Of a stretch of 36,225 nt of DNA, positions 1 to 14,107 are shown one piece after another; position 1 is the stretch's first letter; every line of letters begins with the position of its first letter. A program made the translations under genes and the position numbers. Below the pieces are notes generated by a model. It did no database searches, had not been told where the DNA came from, and worked only from the letters and a program-made list of their open reading frames with translations. The DNA lies in IMG/VR virus record IMGVR_UViG_2526164670_000014. One strand, given 5' to 3'. Source of the stretch: a virus (lineage: Duplodnaviria > Heunggongvirae > Uroviricota > Caudoviricetes).

Positions 1-1053
1 TTACGGGGTAATGCCAACCGCTGCCGCCACTTTGTCGCCACTTGGCAGCGTTGCCAGAGGATTGAAACGGAGCGCCGTTTCCAGATGATCCGGTGCCAGA
101 TGTGCGTAACGCATAGTCATTTTTATATCGTGGTGTCCGAGAATTTTTTGTAAGGCCAGAATGTTTCCACCCGACATCATGAAGTGCGCCGCAAACGTAT
201 GGCGCAGAACGTGTGTGAGTTGACCGCGAGGGAGCACGATAGACGTTTTTTCCATCACGGATAAAAATTGAAAATAGCAGTCTGTGAAGAAATTGAACCC
301 ATCAAGCGCCATGATCTCTTCGTAAAGCTCTTTACTGATAGGGATGCTTCTGTTTTTCTTCCCCTTCGTTCTTACAAAGGTAATTCGGTATTTGGTCACC
401 TGTGAACGAGTAAGATTTACGGCTTCTCGCCAGCGTGCGCCTGTGCTTAAGCATATCTTAACTACCAGTGCCAGAATTGGGTCCTGACGTTTGCAATCAG
501 CCAGTAATTCAACAATCTGCTCATGGGTAAGCCATGCCATCTCTTTTTCTGCAATGGTGAATTTTCGCATGTTCTCCAGTGGGTTCGGATACGACCATTC
601 GCCCAGGCGGGATAGTTCGCTAAAAACACTACTTAGATAGCTTTGCTCCAGGTTAATGGTGACCGGGCTTGCTCCTTTCTTCCATTTCTCGCTGAAGTAG
701 ATCTCACCTGTCAGGCGTTTATCTCGATAGTGGGCAAACATTTTAGAGGTTAGATCAGTTGCAAGGGGATTGCCCAGAGCGTCAACCATCAGCAGCAATT
801 TGTCATAGACATGCTGCCCAGCAGTCAGTGATTTACCATGTAGTTTGAACCATAGCTCAACCACGTCTTTCAGTGTTCGACGATCCACTGATTCACCTAG
901 CCAGGGCTTTGCTTCGGTTTCTTCCATCGTGTGACGCTCAAAAGCCAGTGCTTCGCCTTTGGTGGCGAATTGTTTACGCACACGACGCCCACTACGTCCG
1001 GCGGGGTAACATTCGCAAAGCCATTTTCCTGTGGTGAGTTTTCGTACAGCCAT
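1..1053 (-). CDS. int: Tyrosine-family phage integrase
   Basis: ORF track 1..1131; start placed at the ATG (MAVRKLTTGKW) at 1053, which has a GGAGG about 8 nt upstream. Motifs RHTFA and HHDIKMTMRYAH (catalytic Tyr region). Last about 13 codons are encoded by att core plus host flank. Confidence 0.9.
   Translation of the reverse strand: MAVRKLTTGKWLCECYPAGRSGRRVRKQFATKGEALAFERHTMEETEAKPWLGESVDRRTLKDVVELWFKLHGKSLTAGQHVYDKLLLMVDALGNPLATDLTSKMFAHYRDKRLTGEIYFSEKWKKGASPVTINLEQSYLSSVFSELSRLGEWSYPNPLENMRKFTIAEKEMAWLTHEQIVELLADCKRQDPILALVVKICLSTGARWREAVNLTRSQVTKYRITFVRTKGKKNRSIPISKELYEEIMALDGFNFFTDCYFQFLSVMEKTSIVLPRGQLTHVLRHTFAAHFMMSGGNILALQKILGHHDIKMTMRYAHLAPDHLETALRFNPLATLPSGDKVAAAVGITP
19..40. repeat. 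attL core (cgctgccgccaCtttgtcgcca)
   Basis: Direct repeat of 33371-33392 with a single C/T mismatch; flanking sequence diverges on both sides; lies within the 3' end of the integrase reading frame. Confidence 0.7.
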
Positions 1054-1448: not shown

Positions 1449-2018
1449 TTATTTAACATACTTGACTGTTAAACTTATAATTTTACCAATTATTTCAATG
1501 TCTTCTATCTTACATTCGAAGGCTCTGTTTCCACCCTCGACGAAGATTCTTCCACCGGGTAAACGAGTAATGTCACGGATCGTTATTTCGCCATCAATAC
1601 TTATTACCCATTTACCATCACGTATATCATCAAATTCCTTATCACAAATAAATTCAGAATTATTATCTGTGATTACAAAAAGATTCTTGAATGCCGACGG
1701 TAGAAATTCTCTATCGAAAATATAAAAACCGTCTTCACACAAGGCCCCATCAGATAATACATATTTAGCAACTTCCATAGTATTTGTATTACCTGAAGTT
1801 TGCTTTGAACCATGCCCGGTTGTGAGCCAATTAAGCGAGGTGCCTGTTTCAAGGGCGCACTGGATTACCCATTCTGCTGGGAATGAGTCACGCATGTAGC
1901 GTGTGGCGAGTGTACTTTTAGAGATTCCTAAATGATCGCACAACGCCTGTCGAGTCTTGAATCCATAAGCTTCTACCATGCGCTCTATGGCGCCTCGTCC
2001 GCCTTTCTCCAAATTCAT
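1449..2018 (-). CDS. CI-type immunity repressor (186-like)
   Basis: Divergent from apl/cII, N-terminal HTH-like segment (GISKSTLATRYMRD); ATG at 2018 preceded by GGAG; position next to int as in P2/186. Confidence 0.75.
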   Translation of the reverse strand: MNLEKGGRGAIERMVEAYGFKTRQALCDHLGISKSTLATRYMRDSFPAEWVIQCALETGTSLNWLTTGHGSKQTSGNTNTMEVAKYVLSDGALCEDGFYIFDREFLPSAFKNLFVITDNNSEFICDKEFDDIRDGKWVISIDGEITIRDITRLPGGRIFVEGGNRAFECKIEDIEIIGKIISLTVKYVK

Positions 2019-2043
2019 GGTCACTCCAAGTGAACTTTTATCT

Positions 2044-2143: not shown

Positions 2144-2365
2144 ATGAGACCTAACATTTCAATCACTCTTACCACGCCTCATGTGACTATTGAACGCTAT
2201 AGCGAGCTGACAGGGCTATCCATCGATACCATCAATGACATGTTGGCTGATGGACGCCTTATCCGTCACCGTCTGCGCAAAGATAAAAAACGCGAAAAAG
2301 TGATGATCAACATAGCAGCAATGACCGTTGATGCGCTTTCAGAATGCAATCTAAACCTTAATTAG
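2144..2365 (+). CDS. Apl/Cox-like small DNA-binding excisionase/regulator
   Basis: 73-aa basic protein, first gene of the rightward early operon opposite cI; GAGGA 9 nt upstream of the ATG. Confidence 0.6.
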
Positions 2366-2397
2366 TTCGATTCTGAAATACATCAGAGGCATTGACC

Positions 2398-2907
2398 ATG
2401 TTTGATTACCAAGTTTCCAAACATCCACATTTTGATGAAGCCTGTCGTGCATTTGCACTGCGCCACAATCTGGTGCAACTGGCAGAACGTGCAGGCATGA
2501 ATGTGCAGATTCTGCGGAACAAGCTGAACCCAGCTCAGCCTCATTTATTAACCGCACCAGAAATCTGGCTGCTTACCGATCTGACTGAAGATTCAACGCT
2601 GGTAGATGGTTTTCTGGCACAGATTCATTGTCTGCCATGTGTACCGATTAATGAGGTGGCAAAAGAGAAACTGCCACATTACGTCATGAGTGCAACCGCA
2701 GAGATCGGGCGTGTTGCTGCAGGTGCGGTGTCTGGCGATATAAAAACCTGTGCCGGTCGTCGTGATGCTATCAGCAGCATTAACTCTGTAACACGACTGA
2801 TGGCGCTGGCGGCTGTTTCATTGCAGGCCCGTTTACAGGCTAATCCTGCGATGGCGAGTGCAGTTGATACCGTGACTGGCCTCGGTGCTTCATTTGGTTT
2901 GCTGTGA
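2398..2907 (+). CDS. cII: CII-like lysogeny establishment activator (186 CII family)
   Basis: 169 aa from the ATG at 2398; N-terminal [20 protein letters not shown] and overall sequence recalled as close to phage 186 CII; position after apl. Confidence 0.75.
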
Positions 2908-3721: not shown

Positions 3722-3948
3722 TGGCTGATGCAATGGATCTCGTACAGCAGCGCGTTGAAGAAGAACGCCAGCGCCATATCCGTGCTGCCCGTGCCAAAAC
3801 GCCGGGCGTGTCCCGCGTGCTTTGCATTGAGTGTGAAGCGCCAATTCCGCCAGCACGCCGCCGCGCCATTCCGGGTGTGCAGCTTTGCATTACCTGTCAG
3901 GAAATCGCAGAGCTGAAAGGCAAACATTACAACGGAGGTGCTGTATGA
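3721..3948 (+). CDS. TraR/DksA-family C4 zinc-finger protein
   Basis: 75 aa with CIECEAPIP...LCITCQ (CxxC-N17-CxxC) characteristic of phage TraR-like proteins. Confidence 0.75.
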   Translation: MADAMDLVQQRVEEERQRHIRAARAKTPGVSRVLCIECEAPIPPARRRAIPGVQLCITCQEIAELKGKHYNGGAV

Positions 3949-4802
3949 GCACCATCCTGAAATGGGCGGGAAATAAAACCGCCATTATGTCCGAACTGAA
4001 AAAGCATCTTCCTGCTGGCCAGCGACTGGTTGAACCTTTCGCGGGTTCCTGTGCTGTGATGATGGAGACGGAGTACCCCAGCTATCTTGTTGCGGATATT
4101 AATCCTGATTTAATCAACCTCTATAAAAAGGTTGCTGCTGATTGTGAATCGTTTATATCTCGCGCCAGAGCTTTATTTGAGGAAGCAAACAGGGAGGTGG
4201 CTTATTACAACATAAGGCAGGAGTTTAATTACTCAACTGAAATTACTGATTTCATGAAAGCGGTATATTTCCTGTATCTCAATCGTCACGGTTACCGTGG
4301 TTTATGTCGCTATAACAAGAGCGGGCATTTCAACATTCCCTACGGTAATTATAAAAATCCGTATTTCCCTGAAAAAGAAATTCGCGCTTTTGCAGAAAAA
4401 GCCCAGCGAGCAACGTTTATCTGCGCCAGCTTTGATGAAACGTTGGCGGTGTTGAAGGCGGGGGATGTGGTGTATTGCGATCCGCCTTATGACGGTACGT
4501 TTTCCGGCTATCACGCTGACGGCTTCACTGAAGATGACCAGTATCACCTGGCATCCGTTCTTGAACATCGGTCATCAGAAGGACATCCGGTCATTGTTTC
4601 TAACAGTGACACATCCCTGATCCGTTCGCTGTATCGCAATTTTACTCACCACTATATCAAGGTAAAACGCAGCATCGGTGTGGCAGCTGGCGAGGGTAAA
4701 TCAGCAACAGAAATCATTGCTGTTTCCGGGCCGCGCTGCTGGGTGGGATTTGATTATTCGCGTGGCGTGGATAATTCTGCCGTGTACGGAGTACGTGCAT
4801 GA
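3945..4802 (+). CDS. dam: DNA N6-adenine methyltransferase (Dam-like, orphan)
   Basis: Motifs PFAGS (SAM binding) and DPPY (catalytic); GGAGG upstream of ATG 3945; no restriction-enzyme partner adjacent. Confidence 0.85.
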
Positions 4803-7213
4803 GCCATGCCGATATGAACAACTGCTGCGGCTTTAACGAGGCTGCCGCATCGTTCTCATGGAACAGCCCGAAAAAGGCCATTAACCCTTATCTGGACCCG
4901 GCGGAAGTTGCGCCGGTTTCTACGCTTTCAAACCTGATCACTCTGTACGCTGCCGATAACGAGCAGGAACAGCTGCGCCGAGAGGCACTGAGTGATCAGG
5001 TCTGGGAGCGTTATTTCTTTAATGAATCCCGTGATCCTGTCCAGCGCGAAATGGAGCAGGATAAGCTCATTAGTCGGGCAAAGCTGGCGCATGAGCAGCA
5101 GCGTTTTAATCCGGATATGGTCATTCTGGCGGACGTCAACGCCCAGCCTTCCCATATCAGCAAGCCCCTGATGCAACGTATTGAATACTTCAGCAACCTG
5201 GGCAAGCCAAAGGCTTATTCCCGCTATTTACGTGAGACGATTAAGCCATGTCTGGAACGACTGGAGCATGTACGCGACAGCCAGCTATCTGCATCTTTTC
5301 GTTTTATGGCAAGCCATGAAGGGCTGGACGGCCTGTTTATCCTGCCTGAAATGAGTCAGGATCAGGTGAAGCGCCTGTCTACCCTTGTCGCTGCGCATAT
5401 GAGCATGTGCCTTGATGCCGCTTGTGGTGATTTGTATGCCACCGATGACGTTAAGCCAGAAGAAATCCGCAAGACATGGGAAAAGGTGGCAGCGGAAACC
5501 CTGCGTCTGGATGTTATCCCGCCTGCGTTTGAGCAACTCCGTCGGAAAAGAAACCGCCGTAAACCCGTGCCCTATGAACTCATTCCGGGTTCGCTGGCGC
5601 GTATGTTGTGCGCCGACTGGTGGTACCGGAAATTATGGAAGATGCGTTGCGAATGGCGGGAAGAGCAGTTGCGTGCTGTCTGCCTTGTCAGCAAAAAAGC
5701 ATCTCCCTATGTCAGCTATGAAGCCGTGCTGCATAAACGTGAGCAGCGCCGTAAGTCGCTGGAGTTTTTCCGTTCTCATGAACTGGTGAACGAAGACGGC
5801 GACACGCTGGACATGGAGGATGTGGTAAACGCCAGCAGCAGCAACCCTGCGCATCGCCGCAATGAGATGATGGCCTGTGTTAAAGGTCTGGAGCTTATCG
5901 CGGAAATGCGCGGTGACTGCGCCGTTTTCTACACCATCACCTGTCCGTCACGTTTCCATTCCACGCTAAATAACGGCAGGCCCAACCCGACCTGGACAAA
6001 TGCGACGGTAAGACAAAGCAGCGATTATCTGGTCGGTATGTTTGCTGCATTTCGTAAGGCGATGCACAAAGCCGGGTTGCGCTGGTATGGCGTGCGGGTG
6101 GCTGAGCCGCATCACGACGGCACAGTTCACTGGCACCTGTTGTGTTTCATGCGCAAAAAAGACCGCCGCGCCATTACTGCATTGTTGCGTAAGTTTGCTA
6201 TCCGTGAAGACCGCGAGGAGCTGGGCAATAACACGGGGCCGCGCTTTAAGTCTGAGCTGATTAACCCGCGCAAAGGAACGCCGACAAGCTACATAGCGAA
6301 ATACATCAGTAAGAACATTGACGGGCGTGGTCTGGCTGGCGAGATCAGCAAGGAAACGGGTAAATCTCTGCGTGATAACGCTGAATACGTGAATGCCTGG
6401 GCGTCTTTGCATCGTGTTCAGCAATTCCGCTTCTTTGGCATTCCGGGGCGTCAGGCTTACCGTGAACTGCGATTGCTGGCTGGTCAGGCGGCAAGGCAAC
6501 AGGGGGACAAAAAAGCAGGTGCGCCGGTACTGGATAACCCGCGCCTTGATGCCATCCTGGCTGCTGCTGATGCTGGTTGTTTTGCCACCTACATCATGAA
6601 GCAGGGCGGCGTACTGGTTCCCCGTAAATATCACCTCATCAGAACCGCTTATGAAATCAACGAAGAGCCGACCGCCTATGGCGATCACGGCATTCGTATT
6701 TATGGCATCTGGTCACCCATTGCAGAGGGCAAGATCTGCACTCATGCAGTGAAGTGGAAAATGGTTCGTAAAGCCGTTGACGTTCAGGAGGCGGCAGCCG
6801 ACCAGGGCGCTTGCGCCCCTTGGACTCGTGGCAATAACTGTCCCCTTGCTGAAAATTTGTACCAACAAGGGAAAGACAAATCAGCTGATGGGGATACCAG
6901 AACGGATATCATCCGTATGGATGACAAGGAGTTGCACGATTATCTGCACAGTATGAACAAAAAAGAGCGCCGAGAACTGGCTGCAAGGTTACGCCTGGTG
7001 AAACCGAAACGGCGTAGAGACTACAAACAGCGAATTACAGACCATCAACGACAGCAGCTCGTCTATGAACTGAAGTCCAGAGGATTTGATGGCAGCGAGA
7101 AAGAGGTCGATTTACTCCTTCGCGGCGGCAGCATTCCGTCAGGAGCAGGCCTGCGAATCTTCTATCGGAACCAGCGTTTGCAGGAAGATGATAAGTGGCG
7201 GAACCTGTATTAA
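4799..7213 (+). CDS. A: Rolling-circle replication initiator/endonuclease (P2 gpA family)
   Basis: 804 aa; HUH motif (TVHWHLL) and paired tyrosines YIAKYISK typical of gpA/phiX174-type Rep; start overlaps the dam stop. Confidence 0.85.
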
Positions 7214-7307
7214 TTACGCGGGTTAACAATTCGTGCTCTTAATAATACCAGGCATATCAGGCTGATGAACGTAAAAAAACGTTTTACATCAGTAAGATTA
7301 TTATATA

Positions 7308-7323
7308 CTGTAAATATAAACAG
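7308..7323 (+). promoter_or_regulatory. LexA (SOS) box CTGT-N8-ACAG
   Basis: taCTGTaaatataaACAGtg, perfect half-sites with AT-rich spacer, 44 bp upstream of the tum-like start codon; TATACT -10-like hexamer overlaps it. Confidence 0.7.
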
Positions 7324-7366
7324 TGGTTATGCATACAGTATTGCTTGTGGTGTCATAGGAGGAAAA

Positions 7367-7555
7367 ATGCAGGACTATTTTTTGGAGTCTTTGAAGCTCC
7401 AACGCATTGATTTTTTTCTTAAGCTTGTAGCGGCTAGTGAGTGTAGTGATGAAGAGAAGGGGCTGGCTTTGCAGTGGGTTTCTGAACTAACAGATGAACT
7501 CATGGCAAAAATCAGAACCCACGAATACAACCGCTCAATGGATGTCATCAGTTGA
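7367..7555 (+). CDS. Tum-like small protein (putative SOS-induced antirepressor, N-terminal module)
   Basis: 62-aa ORF from the ATG at 7367 with AGGAGG RBS, just downstream of the LexA box; the ORF-track start at 7265 would place the LexA box inside the coding sequence, so it was rejected. Confidence 0.5.
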   Translation: MQDYFLESLKLQRIDFFLKLVAASECSDEEKGLALQWVSELTDELMAKIRTHEYNRSMDVIS

Positions 7556-7565
7556 GGTGACTTTT

Positions 7566-7799
7566 ATGCGCATTGAAATAATGATCGATAAAGAGCAGAA
7601 GATTAGCCAGTCTATCCTGGACGCCCTTGAATCCGAGCTTTACCGCAATCTGCGCCCCCTGTATCCAAAAACGGTAATTCGTATCCGCAAAGGTAGCTCT
7701 AACGGTGTGGAACTGACCGGACTGCAACTGGACGAAGAAAGGAAGCAAGTGATGAAAATTATGCAGAAGGTGTGGGAAGACGATAGCTGGCTGCATTAA
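7566..7799 (+). CDS. dinI: DinI-family protein
   Basis: 77 aa from the ATG at 7566; MRIEIMIDKEQ...LDALESEL...RIRKG...KVWEDDSWL resembles E. coli DinI in length and sequence. Confidence 0.8.
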   Translation: MRIEIMIDKEQKISQSILDALESELYRNLRPLYPKTVIRIRKGSSNGVELTGLQLDEERKQVMKIMQKVWEDDSWLH

Positions 7800-7807
7800 G
7801 AAACGTT

Positions 7808-7837
7808 GCCCCCAGTAGGGTTCATTCTGATGGGGGC
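7808..7837 (+). terminator. Putative hairpin terminator after dinI
   Basis: gccccca-N16-tgggggc stem-loop right after the dinI stop; weak T-tract (tagttt). Confidence 0.35.
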
Positions 7838-7973
7838 TAGTTTGAGCAACGAGTGAAACGAGGCGTTAGGTGGGAGGCCATTTTGATAAGTTATCACCCA
7901 CTTTATACCAATAACAGAACTGCGTAATAACTATTTACCTCGGGGGAAGATGTGAGCCATACAAATTTCAGTA

Positions 7974-9032
7974 TTAATTTTCAATTCCCTCCATTTTACA
8001 ATGAGTTTTTTCCCAGAACTGTAATACAACAGGACTAGCCCACTCTGGCATCAGTGCGTTATTTAAAAAACTGAAAACATCATGAGACGCATCAGCATTT
8101 TTTCTAAGGAATTTCCAGCCTTTTCTAGTATTTATCTCAACAATACCTAACCCACCATCATCAAACATATGCATCTTGAATTCAGGATTGTTTACACCTA
8201 GAGATTTTATTTCTTTTATGTATGGACTATCTTCATCCATAAATATTTTCTCTATGTGCTTAGCACAATGATATATTTTATTTCGATAAGTTGATACGCT
8301 CACAGCGGTACGCGCTGTTGTTATTCCCATTCCTAATGGGGCATATGCTTTTCCATCCATCACTACGGGCAGATTTATTCCATTTTTTCTTAAGTTTGCA
8401 ATATCTGAATCTGTAGTTGGATGAATACAAGCTAAGCCTGAAATACCTTTCATTTCAAATATTTCTGCTGCTTCTGGCCAGTTGCGTATGAATGTTTCTA
8501 CCAAATCTCTTTGAGAAAAAAGATTTGGTTCTATGTTTTTATCATGATGTTTTATATCAATAAAAAGCACAGCGTTTGAGTACACCTTCAGGAATAATAC
8601 CCACTCAGCACGATCTGAGTATTTTTTACTTGAACTTACTGGATTTAATGGCAGATGGAGGTGATGAATCCCCCAATCAGCCCATAGGTTATCCGTTCTT
8701 TTCGTCGCCTTTTTACCGCTTGTGTCATTGAATAATGTTAATGTTTTACTCTGATAAGGATTTACATCACCACCAGTAGTAAACAACATCTCGATTCTCT
8801 GCAATCCAACCCTTGCGCCATCGTGAATATTTCCAGGAAATCGATCTGATTTTAAAATTATTCGTTTTTGTGGAGCAATGTAGCGTAAAAGAAAATCACA
8901 CCACCTCAGTAGAGGATCGTGAAGATTTGAGTGCCCGGATTCATCATATAATAACCCAAATGCTTGAATTCCCTTCTCTGAAATTTCGTCAATATCTTTG
9001 ATTAGATCAATATTTTTTCGTGCGTCCAACAT
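7974..9032 (-). CDS. Uncharacterised 352-aa protein in AT-rich accessory island (candidate anti-phage/accessory gene)
   Basis: Long uninterrupted ORF, GGAG 5-8 nt upstream of the ATG; about 28% GC by hand count on one 60-nt line versus about 58% on a structural-gene line; no family recognised by eye. Confidence 0.7.
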   Translation of the reverse strand: MLDARKNIDLIKDIDEISEKGIQAFGLLYDESGHSNLHDPLLRWCDFLLRYIAPQKRIILKSDRFPGNIHDGARVGLQRIEMLFTTGGDVNPYQSKTLTLFNDTSGKKATKRTDNLWADWGIHHLHLPLNPVSSSKKYSDRAEWVLFLKVYSNAVLFIDIKHHDKNIEPNLFSQRDLVETFIRNWPEAAEIFEMKGISGLACIHPTTDSDIANLRKNGINLPVVMDGKAYAPLGMGITTARTAVSVSTYRNKIYHCAKHIEKIFMDEDSPYIKEIKSLGVNNPEFKMHMFDDGGLGIVEINTRKGWKFLRKNADASHDVFSFLNNALMPEWASPVVLQFWEKTHCKMEGIEN

Positions 9033-9445: not shown

Positions 9446-9521
9446 CGCGCGCAACGGGTTGTCATTCAAACTCCAATGCTATAAAACTGTGTAATACAAA
9501 CAACTAAAGTAGGTGGCCTCA

Positions 9522-11267
9522 GTGGAACTGCAAGCAAATGCTCGAACCTTAACAAACGTGTTATCTGTAAATAAAAAATATATAGTCCCTAGATTCCAAA
9601 GAGAATATTCTTGGGGGAAGGAACAAGTAAGTGAACTTTGGCATGATATAGTTTCCAATATTCATTACCAGGAGGATGGGCAGTATCAATATGATGAGTA
9701 TTTCATCGGTGCTCTCGTTTTGGTCGGGCAGGAAACTAGCTCTGAGCTGATGATTGTAGATGGTCAACAACGTCTTACGACTCTTACTATATTGTTATCA
9801 GCATTATGTGATAAATTTAAGTTGATAAATGAGTTGGCTGTAGCTCAATCAATATATAATAATTATATATCTGGTATGGATGACGATGGCAGACCTTTTT
9901 TTAAATTAGTTAATGAAACTCCTAAGCCATACTTTCAAAACAACATTCAGCATATTGATAAGAGAAATGAAGGGCCGGAGTCCCTTGAAGAAAGAAACTT
10001 GCAATCTTCATATAATGATTTAACTGAGTATCTTTCAGAAGATAATCTTTGCCAGACATTAGGAGTAGATAGAGAGAAATTTATCTACTTGGAAGCGTTG
10101 AAGGCTGTGCGGGATCAAGTTCTACGGTATCTGAAAGTGATTTATATTACAGTTAATGATGAAGATGAAGCTTATACAATCTTTGAAACTCTGAATGCTA
10201 GGGGATTAAACTTAAGTTATGTAGATCTTATAAAAAACAAATTATTTAAGAAACTGAATGGCACACATCCTGATGATGATGCAAAAACTAAATGGAATAA
10301 AATTAGGCAAATAATTGCTAGTCGTAATGGTGTCGGTTCTATCGAGACATTTATCCGTCATTGGTGGGTGTCAAAATATTCTTATGTAAGTAGTGACACT
10401 CTTTATAAAGCTTTTCTGGATAAGTGGAAAAAAGGCGACATTGATGCTTCAGCGTTCATTGATGAGCTACTTTCAGATGCCGAGATATATGTGAAAATAT
10501 CATCGCCTACAGAACAGGATTTTCCTGAACTGGAAATGAAACCAGTTTATCGAGGTTTGCAGGCATTAAGGCTGTTTAACATATCTCAGAACAAACCATT
10601 TTTGTTATCTTTATTTAAGGCAAGAGCAAGAGGAACGCTAAAACTTGTTGATATGAATAATGCAGTGCTGTCAATTGAACGCTTTCATTTTATGTTTAAT
10701 GCTATTTGTTCATTGCGACCATCAGGTATTGAAAGTGCGTATGCTAAAGCTGCTAGGGCTTTAGTGGATGAAGGTTCTACTAAAGCTAGTAATAGACAAG
10801 TAATAAAGTCTTTGCTTGAAATGTTGGTGAAGAGAAAACCAGACATTAATATGTTTGTTGAAAAGTTTGTTATGCTTAAATTTTCAAATCAAGAGTTGAA
10901 AAATAAAAGGTTGATTCAGTACATTTTTAATAGACTTGAGTTACATCACATGAAAACGGGGGAGTATATGCCTGATTCATTAACATTAGAGCATATTCAG
11001 CCTCAGAGTGTGGGGGATTCTGAAGTATATAGCATGATAGGAAATTTATTACCACTTTCAAAAGAATTAAATGAAAAAGCTGGAAATAAGTCTGTTGTGG
11101 ATAAGCTTGAAATTTATAAACAATCACAATATGCGCTAGTTAAAATTTTTATTGATGAATTTGAAAATAAATATCAAGGAGAATGGACGCCCGATCATAT
11201 GAGATCAAGAGCTGCTGAACTAAGTATTTTATCGTATAATTCAGTATGGAAATTGGGGCGTGAGTAA
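9522..11267 (+). CDS. DUF262 (ParB-like NTPase) plus DUF1524 (His-Me/HNH-like nuclease) fusion protein, GmrSD-like type IV restriction family
   Basis: N-terminal YIVPRFQREYSW and DGQQRLTT motifs (DUF262); C-terminal LTLEHIQPQS...GNLLPLSKELNEKAGNK (DUF1524-like H..N..N); GTG start at 9522 with AGGTGG 5 nt upstream (ORF track begins at 9513); very AT-rich. Confidence 0.8.
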   Translation: MELQANARTLTNVLSVNKKYIVPRFQREYSWGKEQVSELWHDIVSNIHYQEDGQYQYDEYFIGALVLVGQETSSELMIVDGQQRLTTLTILLSALCDKFKLINELAVAQSIYNNYISGMDDDGRPFFKLVNETPKPYFQNNIQHIDKRNEGPESLEERNLQSSYNDLTEYLSEDNLCQTLGVDREKFIYLEALKAVRDQVLRYLKVIYITVNDEDEAYTIFETLNARGLNLSYVDLIKNKLFKKLNGTHPDDDAKTKWNKIRQIIASRNGVGSIETFIRHWWVSKYSYVSSDTLYKAFLDKWKKGDIDASAFIDELLSDAEIYVKISSPTEQDFPELEMKPVYRGLQALRLFNISQNKPFLLSLFKARARGTLKLVDMNNAVLSIERFHFMFNAICSLRPSGIESAYAKAARALVDEGSTKASNRQVIKSLLEMLVKRKPDINMFVEKFVMLKFSNQELKNKRLIQYIFNRLELHHMKTGEYMPDSLTLEHIQPQSVGDSEVYSMIGNLLPLSKELNEKAGNKSVVDKLEIYKQSQYALVKIFIDEFENKYQGEWTPDHMRSRAAELSILSYNSVWKLGRE

Positions 11268-11294: not shown

Positions 11295-12344
11295 TCAAAA
11301 AGAATCGTTTGTGAAATTTAGGGAGTAGGCATCAAAGCGTATTGCTTCTTCGCCTAGCCAATAGTTAAGTTCTTGTAGCTGTTTCTGCAGGGGCATCAGT
11401 TCGTTGCGGACAAAAACACGACTAGCCTTCTCCACATCACCAAAGCCCCCAACATTATTAGGCATTATCCCCATCATTTGCGGCGGCACACGGTGTGCCG
11501 CCATCATGTCGTCCCGGCTCACGTTCTTGATATTCAGAAACTCATCCTTCGCCGCGACTTCTGACAACGGGATAATCTGAAGCCCGTCCTTTTTGCCGTT
11601 AGGAGAGTACATAAACAGGTTGCGGAAGTTGCCTGGCCCTTTGGCACTTTTCATTGCATTGCGGAGGTTGTTCACATCCTCCTGGTTCTGCGCGGCATCG
11701 GTCATGTACATGATGAAGCCTGCATGACTGCCGTTAATATAATACTTCCGGCGGAACAGCGTGGCGGACTCGTTGAGCAGGGCTGATGGAATGGCAGAAA
11801 GATAACCTGGCAGGCCGTAGATCTCCTGGTTGATGTCCGGTTCCATCAGATGAAAAATGCTGCCTTTCGTGAACTGATACGGCTGGGTTGTCATACCGTA
11901 TTGCACAAACCAGTAGGTATCCAGGTCTAACCCGCGTCGGGTGTATTTTGCCAGAGCAGGCTCAAGGGCGATAACTTCACCGAAGCGGTTCGTGCGTTTC
12001 TCCAGGTAGGCGTTACCAAATACCAGATAGTCCTGCACAAAACGTGAAAAAGCCTGCTGGCTGAGCAGCGGGTGAGGGATGTAGGTACTGGTCAGAATGT
12101 TGCATTTCACCGCAATTGGTGAGCTGTGATGCACGGCGGCGCGGAAGGTTCGTGCCAGTCCGTCAAAGCTGACGGGCGGCTCATACCAGCGGTCCATCTG
12201 TACGCATTCCACATAGTCCAGCAGTTCTCGGCGGTCCAGAACAGGAACGGGATCGCCGAAGCTGAATGCTTCGGCTGTAGTCTGGCTTTTAAGCTGGATC
12301 TGTTTCGTCGCCGCAGCGCGGTTCTTCTTACTCTTTCCCATCAA
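11295..12344 (-). CDS. Q: Portal protein (P2 gpQ family)
   Basis: 349 aa, immediately downstream of and overlapping the terminase ATPase gene; position and size as P2 Q. Confidence 0.85.
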   Translation of the reverse strand: MMGKSKKNRAAATKQIQLKSQTTAEAFSFGDPVPVLDRRELLDYVECVQMDRWYEPPVSFDGLARTFRAAVHHSSPIAVKCNILTSTYIPHPLLSQQAFSRFVQDYLVFGNAYLEKRTNRFGEVIALEPALAKYTRRGLDLDTYWFVQYGMTTQPYQFTKGSIFHLMEPDINQEIYGLPGYLSAIPSALLNESATLFRRKYYINGSHAGFIMYMTDAAQNQEDVNNLRNAMKSAKGPGNFRNLFMYSPNGKKDGLQIIPLSEVAAKDEFLNIKNVSRDDMMAAHRVPPQMMGIMPNNVGGFGDVEKASRVFVRNELMPLQKQLQELNYWLGEEAIRFDAYSLNFTNDSF

Positions 12345-14107
12345 AAAATCTCCACAATATTGCTGGTATTGGCGGATTCGCCCTGCAGCGGTTCGTTAAA
12401 CAATGCGTGCATCGTTGCCCAGGCCAGATCGGCGTGGCTGGCTTCTTCGCTGCGGCTGGCTTCATAGGTCGGGCGGTTGCCGCTGGCGGTGGTTGCGCGA
12501 CGGATTGCCATGAATGACTGCGCAATGTCGGTGTGTCCGGCGTCAAACTCCAGACGGCGGTGGCTGATAATGTCGTAGGCCTTGAGTACCAGGGCGTTTT
12601 TAACGTTGGGGTTGTAGACAAACTCCCGGACGGCTGGAAAAAACGCTTTCACGTTCTCGTAAACCCCGTGACCGACACCCGTCGAGTCGATGCCGATATA
12701 GGTCACGTTGTACTGCTCGGTCAGTTTTTTGATTGCATCAGCCTGGGCGCGGAAGTCCATCCCGCGCCACTGGTGACGCTCAAGAATGCGAAACTTACCG
12801 CCTGGCACGGCTGGCGGTGCCACCACCACGCATCCGGCGCTGTCGCCGTTCTGCGTACCTTTTGCCGGGTCATAACCGATCCACACCTCGCGCCAGCCAA
12901 ACGGGCGCAGGGCCAGTGCATGAAAGTCGGTCCAGACTTCCCAGCTGTCCACCATGCACGCCTGCAGTTCGCTGAGCGGGAACACGGACGCGAGATCGTC
13001 CACGAACTCGCACATCAGCAGGTTCTGATATTCGTCCGGGCTGTATTCCATGCGTAGCTGGTCGAGGTCGAACAGGTTACAGCCGCCGCGCACCGCATCT
13101 TCCACGGTGACTATCTGGCGGTATTGCCCGTCTGCGCACAGCAGGCCGGGGGCCAGATTGTTGTGGGACAGGTCGATGTCCACCTTATCGGCTTTGTTGC
13201 GCCCACGGTTGAACAGCGCACCGGACCAGAACGGATAAGCACTGTGTGTCAGGCTGGATGGCGTGGAAAAATAGGTCTGCCGCCATTTCTTGTGAATAGC
13301 CATACCGGAAGCCACTTTGCGCAGCTCCTGGAATTTCGGGATCCAGAAATATTCATCCAGATACAGGTTGCCGTGGTAACTCTGGGCCGTGCGGGCATTG
13401 GTGCCGAGGAAGTAAAGCGTGGCCCCGTCAGGAAGCACTATCGGATCACCTTTCAGCTCCACCTCGACTTCTTTGGCGAAGTCGATGATGTACTGCTTAA
13501 AGACGTGAGCCTGTGCCTTACTGGCAGAAAGGAAAATCTGGTTACGTCCGGTAAGCAGGGCGTCAATCAGGGCTTCACGGGCAAAGTAAAAGGTCGCGCC
13601 GATCTGGCGTGACTTCAGCAGGTTGCGGATGCGGTTGGTTTTTCCGGCTTCCCACCAGTGGCGCTGGTAGTTGAACATGGAGGAATGGAAAATTTCTTCC
13701 AGCTTCTCAATCTGTTCATCGGTGAAAACGTTCTTTTCCGGCTGACGGCGCGGGCCTTTGTTGCGGTTGGCGACGTTAGGGTTTAAGTCGGCTTCGTTGC
13801 CGCCATTGTTAAACTTGCCGATCCGCGCGTGGCGTTCCGACTGGCGCGCCAGCAGGTCAATCTCTTTGAAATCTTTCCCTTCTTTGTGCTCCTTCATAAT
13901 GAGCTGGCAATAGCGTGCGGCGGTGGTGAGCTGCATCTGATCCAGCGGCCCATAGTCACCCCACTTGTCGCGTTTTTTCCAGCTGTGAACGGTTGCAACT
14001 TTCTCGCCCAGCATTTCAGCAATGCGGGCTACGCGGTATCCCTGAAAGTACAGCAGCATGGCCTGCCGACGGGGATCGAGATCTGCGGGTGTCAGTGTGG
14101 TGTTCAT
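12341..14107 (-). CDS. P: Terminase large (ATPase) subunit (P2 gpP family)
   Basis: 588 aa, divergent from the O-N-M-L capsid operon exactly as in P2; size and position typical. Confidence 0.85.
   Translation of the reverse strand: MNTTLTPADLDPRRQAMLLYFQGYRVARIAEMLGEKVATVHSWKKRDKWGDYGPLDQMQLTTAARYCQLIMKEHKEGKDFKEIDLLARQSERHARIGKFNNGGNEADLNPNVANRNKGPRRQPEKNVFTDEQIEKLEEIFHSSMFNYQRHWWEAGKTNRIRNLLKSRQIGATFYFAREALIDALLTGRNQIFLSASKAQAHVFKQYIIDFAKEVEVELKGDPIVLPDGATLYFLGTNARTAQSYHGNLYLDEYFWIPKFQELRKVASGMAIHKKWRQTYFSTPSSLTHSAYPFWSGALFNRGRNKADKVDIDLSHNNLAPGLLCADGQYRQIVTVEDAVRGGCNLFDLDQLRMEYSPDEYQNLLMCEFVDDLASVFPLSELQACMVDSWEVWTDFHALALRPFGWREVWIGYDPAKGTQNGDSAGCVVVAPPAVPGGKFRILERHQWRGMDFRAQADAIKKLTEQYNVTYIGIDSTGVGHGVYENVKAFFPAVREFVYNPNVKNALVLKAYDIISHRRLEFDAGHTDIAQSFMAIRRATTASGNRPTYEASRSEEASHADLAWATMHALFNEPLQGESANTSNIVEIF

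Follow-up and report, generated by a model that had tools for sequence, protein, structure and literature searches.

The window, i.e., the whole stretch of 36,225 bp that was analyzed, is a complete P2/186-like (Peduoviridae) prophage of E. coli, of the Fels-2/DuoHS type. Its gene set is apparently full, from int to the late control gene D, and the sizes and order of its ORFs match those of DuoHS. The part studied here closes the early region just downstream of gene A, and the corresponding module has this place in 186, PSP3 and Fels-2 as well. A predicted LexA box overlaps a promoter directly upstream of a small gene, tumA, as in the Tum module of 186 and the TumA-TumB module of PSP3, and tumA is followed by a gene of the DinI family, tumB (Table 1).

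Table 1. Genes and regulatory features of the window, in positional order, with the basis of each assignment where available
Feature	Position	Strand	Remarks
int	about 1-1053	-	
Small Cys-rich ORF	between int and cI		
cI	1449..2024	-	186-type immunity repressor, presumed target of TumA; Pfam Phage_CI_repr and Phage_CI_C
apl-like gene	2144-2365		
cII	2392-2907		
Dam methylase	3885-4802		
Replication gene A (gpA)	4799-7213		Pfam Phage_GPA, 2.7e-127
-35 hexamer TTTACA of the tum promoter (p95 equivalent)	7283..7288	+	17 bp upstream of TACTGT
Alternative -10 hexamer TATACT	7304-7309	+	15-bp spacer from TTTACA; overlaps box 1
-10 hexamer TACTGT	7306..7311	+	doubles as left arm of LexA box 1; assigned from the sequence and by comparison with the annotated -10 of 186 p95
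LexA box 1 (strong, predicted), TACTGTAAATATAAACAGTG	7306..7325	.	20-mer enclosing CTGTAAATATAAACAG
LexA box 2 (weaker, predicted), CAGTGGTTATGCATACAGTA	7321..7340	.	overlaps box 1 by five bases
Shine-Dalgarno AGGAGG of tumA	7357..7362	+	4 nt before the ATG at 7367; conserved in related loci
tumA	7367..7555	+	predicted antirepressor of 62 aa, homologue of the 186 Tum N-terminus; family profile, PHROG cross-hits
Small hairpin	7544..7561	+	over the tumA stop (7553-7555) and the tumB Shine-Dalgarno GAGGTG (7554-7559); terminator-like scan and sequence
tumB	7566..7799	+	encodes 77 aa; DinI family, homologue of the 186 Tum C-terminus; Pfam DinI
GC-rich hairpin	7808..7837	.	part of the island DNA; the tum operon and the PD-T4-7 gene converge on it
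PD-T4-7 homologue	7974-9032	-	cargo; PADLOC, 8.7e-144
GmrSD/HEC-06-like gene	9513-11267	+	cargo; own 480-bp upstream region
Portal and terminase genes	11295-14107	-	followed by the late genes
Host gene ybjL	right end, after the late genes		

The sequence is homologous to DuoHS and Fels-2 up to the stop codon of tumB, where the left edge of a known defence hotspot of P2 lies, between the genes for replication and the portal (PMC9519451). The preliminary description of this DNA had placed a weak terminator just beyond this point and had suggested that leakage through it would bring the genes of the island under indirect SOS-linked read-through. The GC-rich hairpin is indeed there (folding of 66 nt yields a structure of -20 kcal/mol, z = -2.2); U is scarce in its tail, UAGUUUGAG, the U tail is weak on both strands, and the hairpin was not called by the terminator scan. 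The suggested read-through fares worse. The first gene of the island, the PD-T4-7 homologue, is transcribed towards the tum operon from the opposite strand, and transcripts that pass the hairpin would thus be antisense to this gene; the GmrSD-like gene on the plus strand is 1.7 kb further on, behind an upstream region of its own. In 186, orf97 lies downstream of tum on the same strand and belongs to the SOS operon behind a partial terminator; it has no homologue in the window. The gene that follows tumB in Fels-2 and DuoHS was also compared to orf97, a relationship that would have favoured an SOS operon reaching into the cargo, and the two are unrelated. Given the gene order of the island and the lack of an orf97 homologue after tumB, read-through is therefore unsupported for the first island gene.

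At the other end of the prophage, a second strong LexA box is predicted in a promoter-like site before int (1083-1102). A search of viral contigs with the integrase returned only copies that are 99-100% identical, which are uninformative on the conservation of this box.

Promoter and LexA operator

A generic promoter scan of positions 7000-8200 yielded no sigma-70 match, because TACTGT agrees with TATAAT at only 3/6 positions; therefore, the assignment of the promoter rests on the analogy with 186 and on conserved spacing. The distance of 17 bp between TTTACA and TACTGT is kept in 23 related loci with long leaders, while the sequence of the spacer varies freely. The -10 hexamer had originally been proposed to be TATACT, which does overlap the LexA box; however, TACTGT, with its 17-bp spacing, makes the better p95-like element. 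By analogy, we assign TACTGT as the -10, fitting the mapped layout of 186 p95, and retain TATACT as the alternative. With either choice, bound LexA would occlude the -10 and the start region.

The consensus SOS box that had been pointed out at 7308-7323, CTGTAAATATAAACAG, was recovered in our analysis, and its pattern, CTGT-N8-ACAG, occurs only once in the window. Taken by itself, the bare pattern is not significant, since 0.56 matches are expected in a window of this size and at least one match was found in 45/100 shuffles, and this would suit a fortuitous palindrome or the relic of a box in a prophage that no longer induces. The full site is a different matter. The 20-mer TACTGTAAATATAAACAGTG differs from the LexA consensus TACTGTATATATATACAGTA at no more than three positions, and a 20-mer so near to it did not turn up in any of 100 shuffles. 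A position-specific scoring matrix (PSSM) trained on E. coli SOS boxes from the literature, the scores of which are approximate, gives box 1 23.6 bits compared to the median of 21.2 bits for the training sites; box 1 is among the two best 20-mers of the window, and the next best score 15.9 and 14.1 bits. Between CTGTAAATATAAACAG (7308-7323) and the tumA ATG there are 43 nt (44 bp in the preliminary description, whose layout of a box, a small ORF and a DinI-family gene is otherwise unchanged).

Conservation also argues against chance or decay. We surveyed tumA loci in one genome per species across many genera of Enterobacterales, using a narrower TumA alignment as the query, and obtained 49 loci that encode a TumA relative at 40-100% identity. 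The motif CTG-N10-CAG stands 13-49 nt before the tumA start in 42/49 of these loci, compared to about 0.06 per locus expected by chance, and the conserved box spans clades with only 40-50% protein identity and with leaders of differing length. Among the seven exceptions, one locus is cut by a contig end that leaves the right half of the box (L009), two have degenerate boxes beside truncated tumA ORFs (L034 and L050), one box is a single base off (L031), one carries a one-base deletion (L047), and in one locus the upstream sequence is unrelated (L042). A box that keeps its position in this way and degenerates beside truncated genes, in a prophage with an apparently full gene set that matches the inducible DuoHS, is hardly a relic, and we regard both a fortuitous and a relic origin as highly improbable.

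The operator appears to be more complex than the single LexA box that had been reported. Box 1 stands as described; however, a second box overlaps it, and the PSSM places box 2, with 14.1 bits, as the fourth best 20-mer of the window. A site with at least 13.3 bits is present at this place in 19/23 long-leader loci (the 99.9th percentile of the null is 5.5 bits), and the same PSSM finds no such site in the short-leader clades, 186 and PSP3. The 46-bp operator is 84-86% identical to sequences that immediately precede the genes of colicins N and R on small Col plasmids, and the two boxes share CAGTGGTTAT..TACAGTA in the manner of the colicin-type double overlapping SOS operators. The second boxes of the colicin operators score 11.5 bits with the same PSSM, which is lower than box 2 here. 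The operator is, therefore, read as a colicin-type double overlapping box, which could be occupied by two LexA dimers.

TumA, TumB and the repressor

The first ORF had been described as a tum-like gene, which is correct insofar as it encodes a homologue of the N-terminus of 186 Tum, the antirepressor part; it is not the full tum gene. Direct BLASTP of the 62-aa ORF against 186 Tum gave no match, and the homology was recognized only with profiles. With a profile made from the ORF of the window and 35 homologues, residues 6-43 of 186 Tum score 34 bits and a Yersinia phage protein that carries the annotation "tum protein" scores 38 bits; among 3000 shuffled decoys, the highest score was 14 bits. 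In addition, the ORF matches phrog_698, phrog_8554 and phrog_1993, and the N-terminus of 186 Tum matches the same three. The profile fails to reach PSP3 TumA (2.8 bits), and the presence of the latter in phrog_1993 is its only link to TumA of the window. Homologues of TumA number 484 among 5.8 billion clusters and 85 among representatives at 50% identity, and nearly all of them have 55-75 residues. A sequence search of the PDB with the family gave no match; AlphaFold2 models TumA as a hairpin of two helices (residues 2-23 and 28-61) with a mean pLDDT of 88.8.

TumB belongs to the Pfam DinI family (PF06183; 1.3e-22, 80.4 bits compared to the cutoff of 24.2, residues 14-76) and shares 41% identity with residues 71-145 of 186 Tum. 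Its gene starts 10 nt past the tumA stop in the +1 frame relative to tumA, and hence it is a separate protein; the small hairpin over this junction may couple translation of the two genes, judging from its position. Since TumA corresponds to the N-terminus and TumB to the C-terminus of 186 Tum, the window carries the split form of tum, tumA/tumB, with the DinI-like part immediately downstream as in PSP3 and Fels-2, whereas the two parts are fused in 186. The record of Fels-2 describes its near-identical TumB counterpart as similar to TumB of PSP3.

The relative importance of the two genes has to be considered, because some observations could be taken to make TumB the main product. TumB is the only product of the operon with a curated family match; the 62-aa ORF has no match in Pfam or PADLOC, and its three PHROGs are labelled as unknown function; and in the Gifsy prophages a dinI homologue heads the LexA-controlled operon that it shares with an antirepressor (PMC3121763). 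The operon could then be an SOS-induced accessory (moron) unit that serves the DinI homologue and tunes the host SOS response, the 62-aa ORF being a leader or an unrelated gene that is dispensable for induction. This is very unlikely in view of the profile match to the 186 Tum N-terminus, the survey and the published genetics. In the survey, gpA lies upstream in 44/49 loci, whereas a DinI gene is found downstream in only 20/49, the other 29/49 keeping tumA and the LexA box without it; therefore, tumA and its LexA box form the conserved core, to which tumB is an optional addition. When only the 62-aa gene of DuoHS (ECHS_RS04495) is deleted in frame, mitomycin C no longer causes lysis or the formation of virions, and a lexA(Ind-) allele of the host abolishes mitomycin C induction as well (PMC12055606). 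The deletion primers fuse the ATG to the TGA of the 62-aa ORF and leave the DinI gene intact (PMC12055606), although the deletion could in principle affect translation of tumB via coupling.

The remaining component is CI, the presumed target of TumA. Its domains and its best match in the PDB by sequence, 186 CI (2FJR, 2.6e-31; 2FKD is 186 CI as well), place the cognate repressor of this prophage in the 186 type, predicted to be non-cleavable. Under lambda-like induction, activated RecA would promote self-cleavage of CI and the LexA box would have no role in the switch. A faint match to Peptidase_S24 in the C-terminal region of CI (E = 0.008) might point in this direction; however, its 16.3 bits are below the Pfam cutoff of 23.3 bits, no stretch passes alone, and the domain found there is Phage_CI_C, as in 186 CI. 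The CI sequence contains neither a Ser-Met catalytic motif nor, within the linker, an Ala-Gly site, so that CI does not match a self-cleaving repressor of the lambda type, which combines an S24 domain, its Ser/Lys dyad and an Ala-Gly site. A CI that has no credible S24 domain, motif or linker site fits inactivation by an antirepressor rather than self-cleavage. Furthermore, 186 is induced via Tum and not by repressor cleavage, and DuoHS, with an identical CI, is not inducible once tumA is deleted. Among the explanations that we considered, lambda-like induction is the least probable, and we give it almost no credence.

One observation on CI calls for an explanation. Seven phages share TumA at 98% identity or more, yet their CIs are only 33-62% identical in pairwise comparisons, with 60-83% identity in the N-terminal domain and 24-60% in the C-terminal domain. 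A near-identical TumA beside divergent CIs is unexpected for a strictly cognate antirepressor.

Induction of the prophage and comparison with known systems

Taken together, we consider it very probable that the region is the SOS operon of a Fels-2/DuoHS-type prophage, in which LexA silences tumA/tumB, TumA inactivates CI, and CI is left uncleaved. In the lysogen, host LexA would bind the double operator, probably at both boxes, over the -10 and start region of the sigma-70 promoter and keep the two-gene operon silent. Upon DNA damage, active RecA would promote self-cleavage of LexA, and the tum operon would be transcribed. TumA, the 62-aa helical hairpin, would then bind the 186-type CI, presumably by direct contact, and free the lytic promoter, which leads to lytic growth; CI itself would not be cleaved during induction. 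The role of TumB is likely to be accessory: as a DinI homologue, it most likely modulates the activity of the RecA filament and would thereby tune the SOS signal. For the presumed binding of CI by TumA, relief of repression and need for TumA in SOS induction, the evidence is indirect and comes from the DuoHS counterpart; for the presumed LexA repression and DNA-damage induction of the tum operon, it is likewise indirect and comes from lexA(Ind-) in DuoHS and p95 in 186. The preliminary description had proposed that this prophage is SOS-inducible in the manner of 186 and not through repressor autocleavage, and this proposal holds up well, supported as it is by homology, context, conservation and published genetics on a near-identical prophage.

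It is conceivable, and we suggest it only tentatively from the sequences, that the SOS wiring exceeds the 186 model: TumA may be a generalist antirepressor that recognizes the conserved N-terminal DNA-binding domain of CI, two LexA dimers may sit on the tum promoter, and int may have a LexA-repressed promoter of its own (box at 1083-1102). If TumA is a generalist, cross-induction among P2-like prophages would be possible in polylysogens. If two LexA dimers hold the tum promoter, induction would be delayed until SOS signalling is strong or prolonged. If int has such a promoter, the supply of integrase for excision would be switched on directly by the same signal.

The prophage should be inducible by DNA damage, including that caused by quinolones, mitomycin C and trimethoprim. 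The 687-bp region of the module is present in 1124/5426 complete E. coli genomes (about one in five), with up to three copies in some of them; under antibiotic stress, release of phage is therefore to be expected from such prophages, along with mobilisation of their defence cargo, here PD-T4-7 and the GmrSD-like gene. There is also an annotation gap. In RefSeq, the small ORF is a "hypothetical protein" and its neighbour a "DinI-like family protein"; the antirepressor has no Pfam family, and the function of its three PHROGs is given as unknown, in spite of the role that the literature has established for it.

Several known systems resemble the module to different degrees. GfoA/GftA of the Gifsy prophages and AntC of N15 follow the same logic, a small LexA-repressed antirepressor that inactivates a non-cleavable repressor. 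The Gifsy gene order is reversed, with dinI first, and the repressors of Gifsy and N15 belong to a different family.

The operators of colicins N and R have nearly the same double overlapping SOS box, ...ACTGTA-N-ATA-AA-C/A-CAGTGGTTATG-N2-TACAGTATT, which reads AACTGTATATAAAACCAGTGGTTATGTGTACAGTATT in colicin N. In the colicin genes, two LexA dimers bind the double operators and prevent untimely expression of a lethal function. The upstream promoter and the controlled gene are different, and the -35 of the window sits 8 bp closer to the boxes.

Phage 186 is induced via the LexA-regulated p95 and Tum, not by cleavage of its repressor (PMC7708051). The annotated layout of p95 (-35 TTCACA, 18 bp, and -10 TACTGT as the left arm of the LexA box) matches that of the window, Tum acts on a 186-type CI, and the operon follows gene A with a partial terminator behind it. 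However, the antirepressor and DinI parts of 186 are fused in one protein of 146 aa with internal starts, and there is a single LexA box.

In Fels-2 and PSP3, tum is split in two by a stop codon (Lemire et al., PMC3121763, where Bunny et al. 2002 is cited on Fels-2). PSP3 is the named prototype of the split arrangement; its gene A is directly followed by the LexA box TACTGTATAAATATACAGTA and the genes for a TumA of 60 aa and a TumB of 77 aa. Its record describes TumA as "similar to 5' end 186 tum; UV induction of prophage", and according to a personal communication quoted second hand, the antirepressor activity resides in the upstream half of tum (PMC3121763). PSP3 differs in its very divergent TumA, its single LexA box and its short leader. 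Fels-2 of Salmonella LT2 is much closer: its tum is split as in the window (STM2728/STM2726.1), 61/62 residues of TumA match those of STM2728, and the operator is identical, whereas its CI is only 41% identical to that of the window, int follows directly after cI, and other cargo is found after tumB.

The closest relative is DuoHS of E. coli HS (the Phollow study), a prophage of the same type at the same insertion site next to ybjL. TumA is 98.4% identical to the product of ECHS_RS04495, and the other identities are 98.7% for TumB, 100% for Apl, 98.2% for CII and 98.4% for gpA; CI of the window is identical over the 189 residues of the DuoHS protein, and so is the LexA operator. The two differ in the cargo downstream of tumB and in the C-terminus of the integrase (89.9% identity). 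The module is, therefore, already known and genetically tested in a near-identical prophage, and its mechanism is textbook for 186-like phages, with nothing new in it; what remains of interest, as far as the sequences suggest, is the colicin-like double box, the LexA box in front of int, and the coexistence of one TumA with many divergent CIs, the N-terminal domains of which are conserved.

TumA and the repressors it may target

We compared TumA, the 62-aa antirepressor, and the 186-type repressor CI in the window (genes at 7367-7555 and 1449-2024, respectively) with their counterparts at six other loci (L006 and L056-L060). TumA is at least 98% identical in all seven phages (the window, Fels-2, Cartapus, 813R9, Kp4860-7, Kp4845-2 and ST15-OXA48phi14.1), whereas the CI repressors of the same phages share merely 33-62% pairwise identity. 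This divergence is unevenly distributed: conservation is seen in the N-terminal HTH domain, at 60-83% identity and with 35 of 65 columns invariant, and not in the C-terminal domain, where identity falls to 24-60% and 10 of 102 columns are invariant. Because a near-identical TumA is thus paired with repressors alike only in their N-terminal domains, the alignments suggest that this domain may be the target of TumA, which may work across immunity types.

It should be noted that RefSeq labels tumA "hypothetical protein", and other sources sometimes call it "levan regulatory protein"; no family match was found in Pfam or PADLOC, and its three PHROGs (698, 8554 and 1993) are all marked as of unknown function. 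These labels are an annotation gap, the function being already established. Several distant homologues (P0146, P0153, P0157, P0161, P0176, P0182, P0185, P0186 and P0193; alignment A3) carry a C-terminal tail that is absent from TumA of the window; it has the form ...KNPQxGGxxSGGGxLQ, frequently terminates in LQ or FQ, and might serve as a tag for degradation or interaction.

LexA-like sites and a putative int promoter

The highest-scoring LexA-like 20-mer in the PSSM scan of the window is located in front of int, between the -35 element and the -10-like hexamer of a promoter-like site, approximately 30 nt upstream of the int start. The box is identical in DuoHS, the near-identical prophage of E. 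coli HS. In the E. coli phage 813R9 and two Klebsiella phages, KP12 and 4LV2017, homology to the window starts right at this site; the CTGG...ACAG arms of the box are invariant, in contrast to its 8 central bases, which vary. The position of the box within a promoter-like site and the invariance of its arms across phages suggest an SOS-controlled int promoter. The third-best 20-mer of the window, AACTGGAAATGAAACCAGTT (10528-10547, 15.9 bits), lies within the GmrSD-like gene; it outscores the weakest PSSM training site and is probably a chance occurrence.

Features of the window discussed in the text
Feature	Coordinates	Strand	Remarks
Promoter-like site	1078-1106	minus	Perfect -35 TTGACA and A/T-rich -10-like hexamer
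-35 TTGACA, perfect	1106-1101	minus	Upstream of int
LexA box TACTGTATGTATAACCAGTG	1083-1102 (core 1085-1100)		Before int; second strong box, 23.9 bits (PSSM)
int start codon	1053-1051	minus
63-aa ORF	1242-1433	minus	Between cI and int; signal-peptide-like N-terminus, six cysteines
Small hairpin GTCATCAGTTGAGGTGAC, then TTTTAT	7544-7561		Spans tumA stop codon and tumB Shine-Dalgarno
PD-T4-7 homologue	7974-9032	minus	PADLOC, 8.7e-144
GmrSD / HEC-06-like gene	9513-11267	plus	Pfam GmrSD_N and GmrSD_C

Separable modules, the cargo island and a possible second variable slot

The hairpin at the tumA-tumB junction differs from those of DuoHS and Fels-2 in loop positions alone; it could couple translation of tumB to that of tumA, or act as a transcriptional attenuator between them. 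The antirepressor and DinI form two modules that can be separated: of the 49 related loci (L007-L055), 29 have no tumB, the DinI gene, downstream of tumA, and one clade, which has a 16-nt leader and a GTG start (VNDLFMESLALQRIEL...), lacks it throughout.

The cargo island in the P2 defence hotspot starts, on its left, exactly at the tumB stop codon and has a low G+C content (about 0.31-0.40, versus about 0.50-0.55 in flanking phage genes). It carries the PD-T4-7 homologue, which gave no match in Pfam, and the GmrSD / HEC-06-like gene.

The position between cI and int looks, from gene content, like a second small variable slot. The DuoHS counterpart of the cysteine-rich ORF found there is annotated as hypothetical; in 813R9 the same position is occupied by a large ATPase gene, KP12 likewise has a large ATPase gene directly upstream of int, and in Fels-2 the position is empty.
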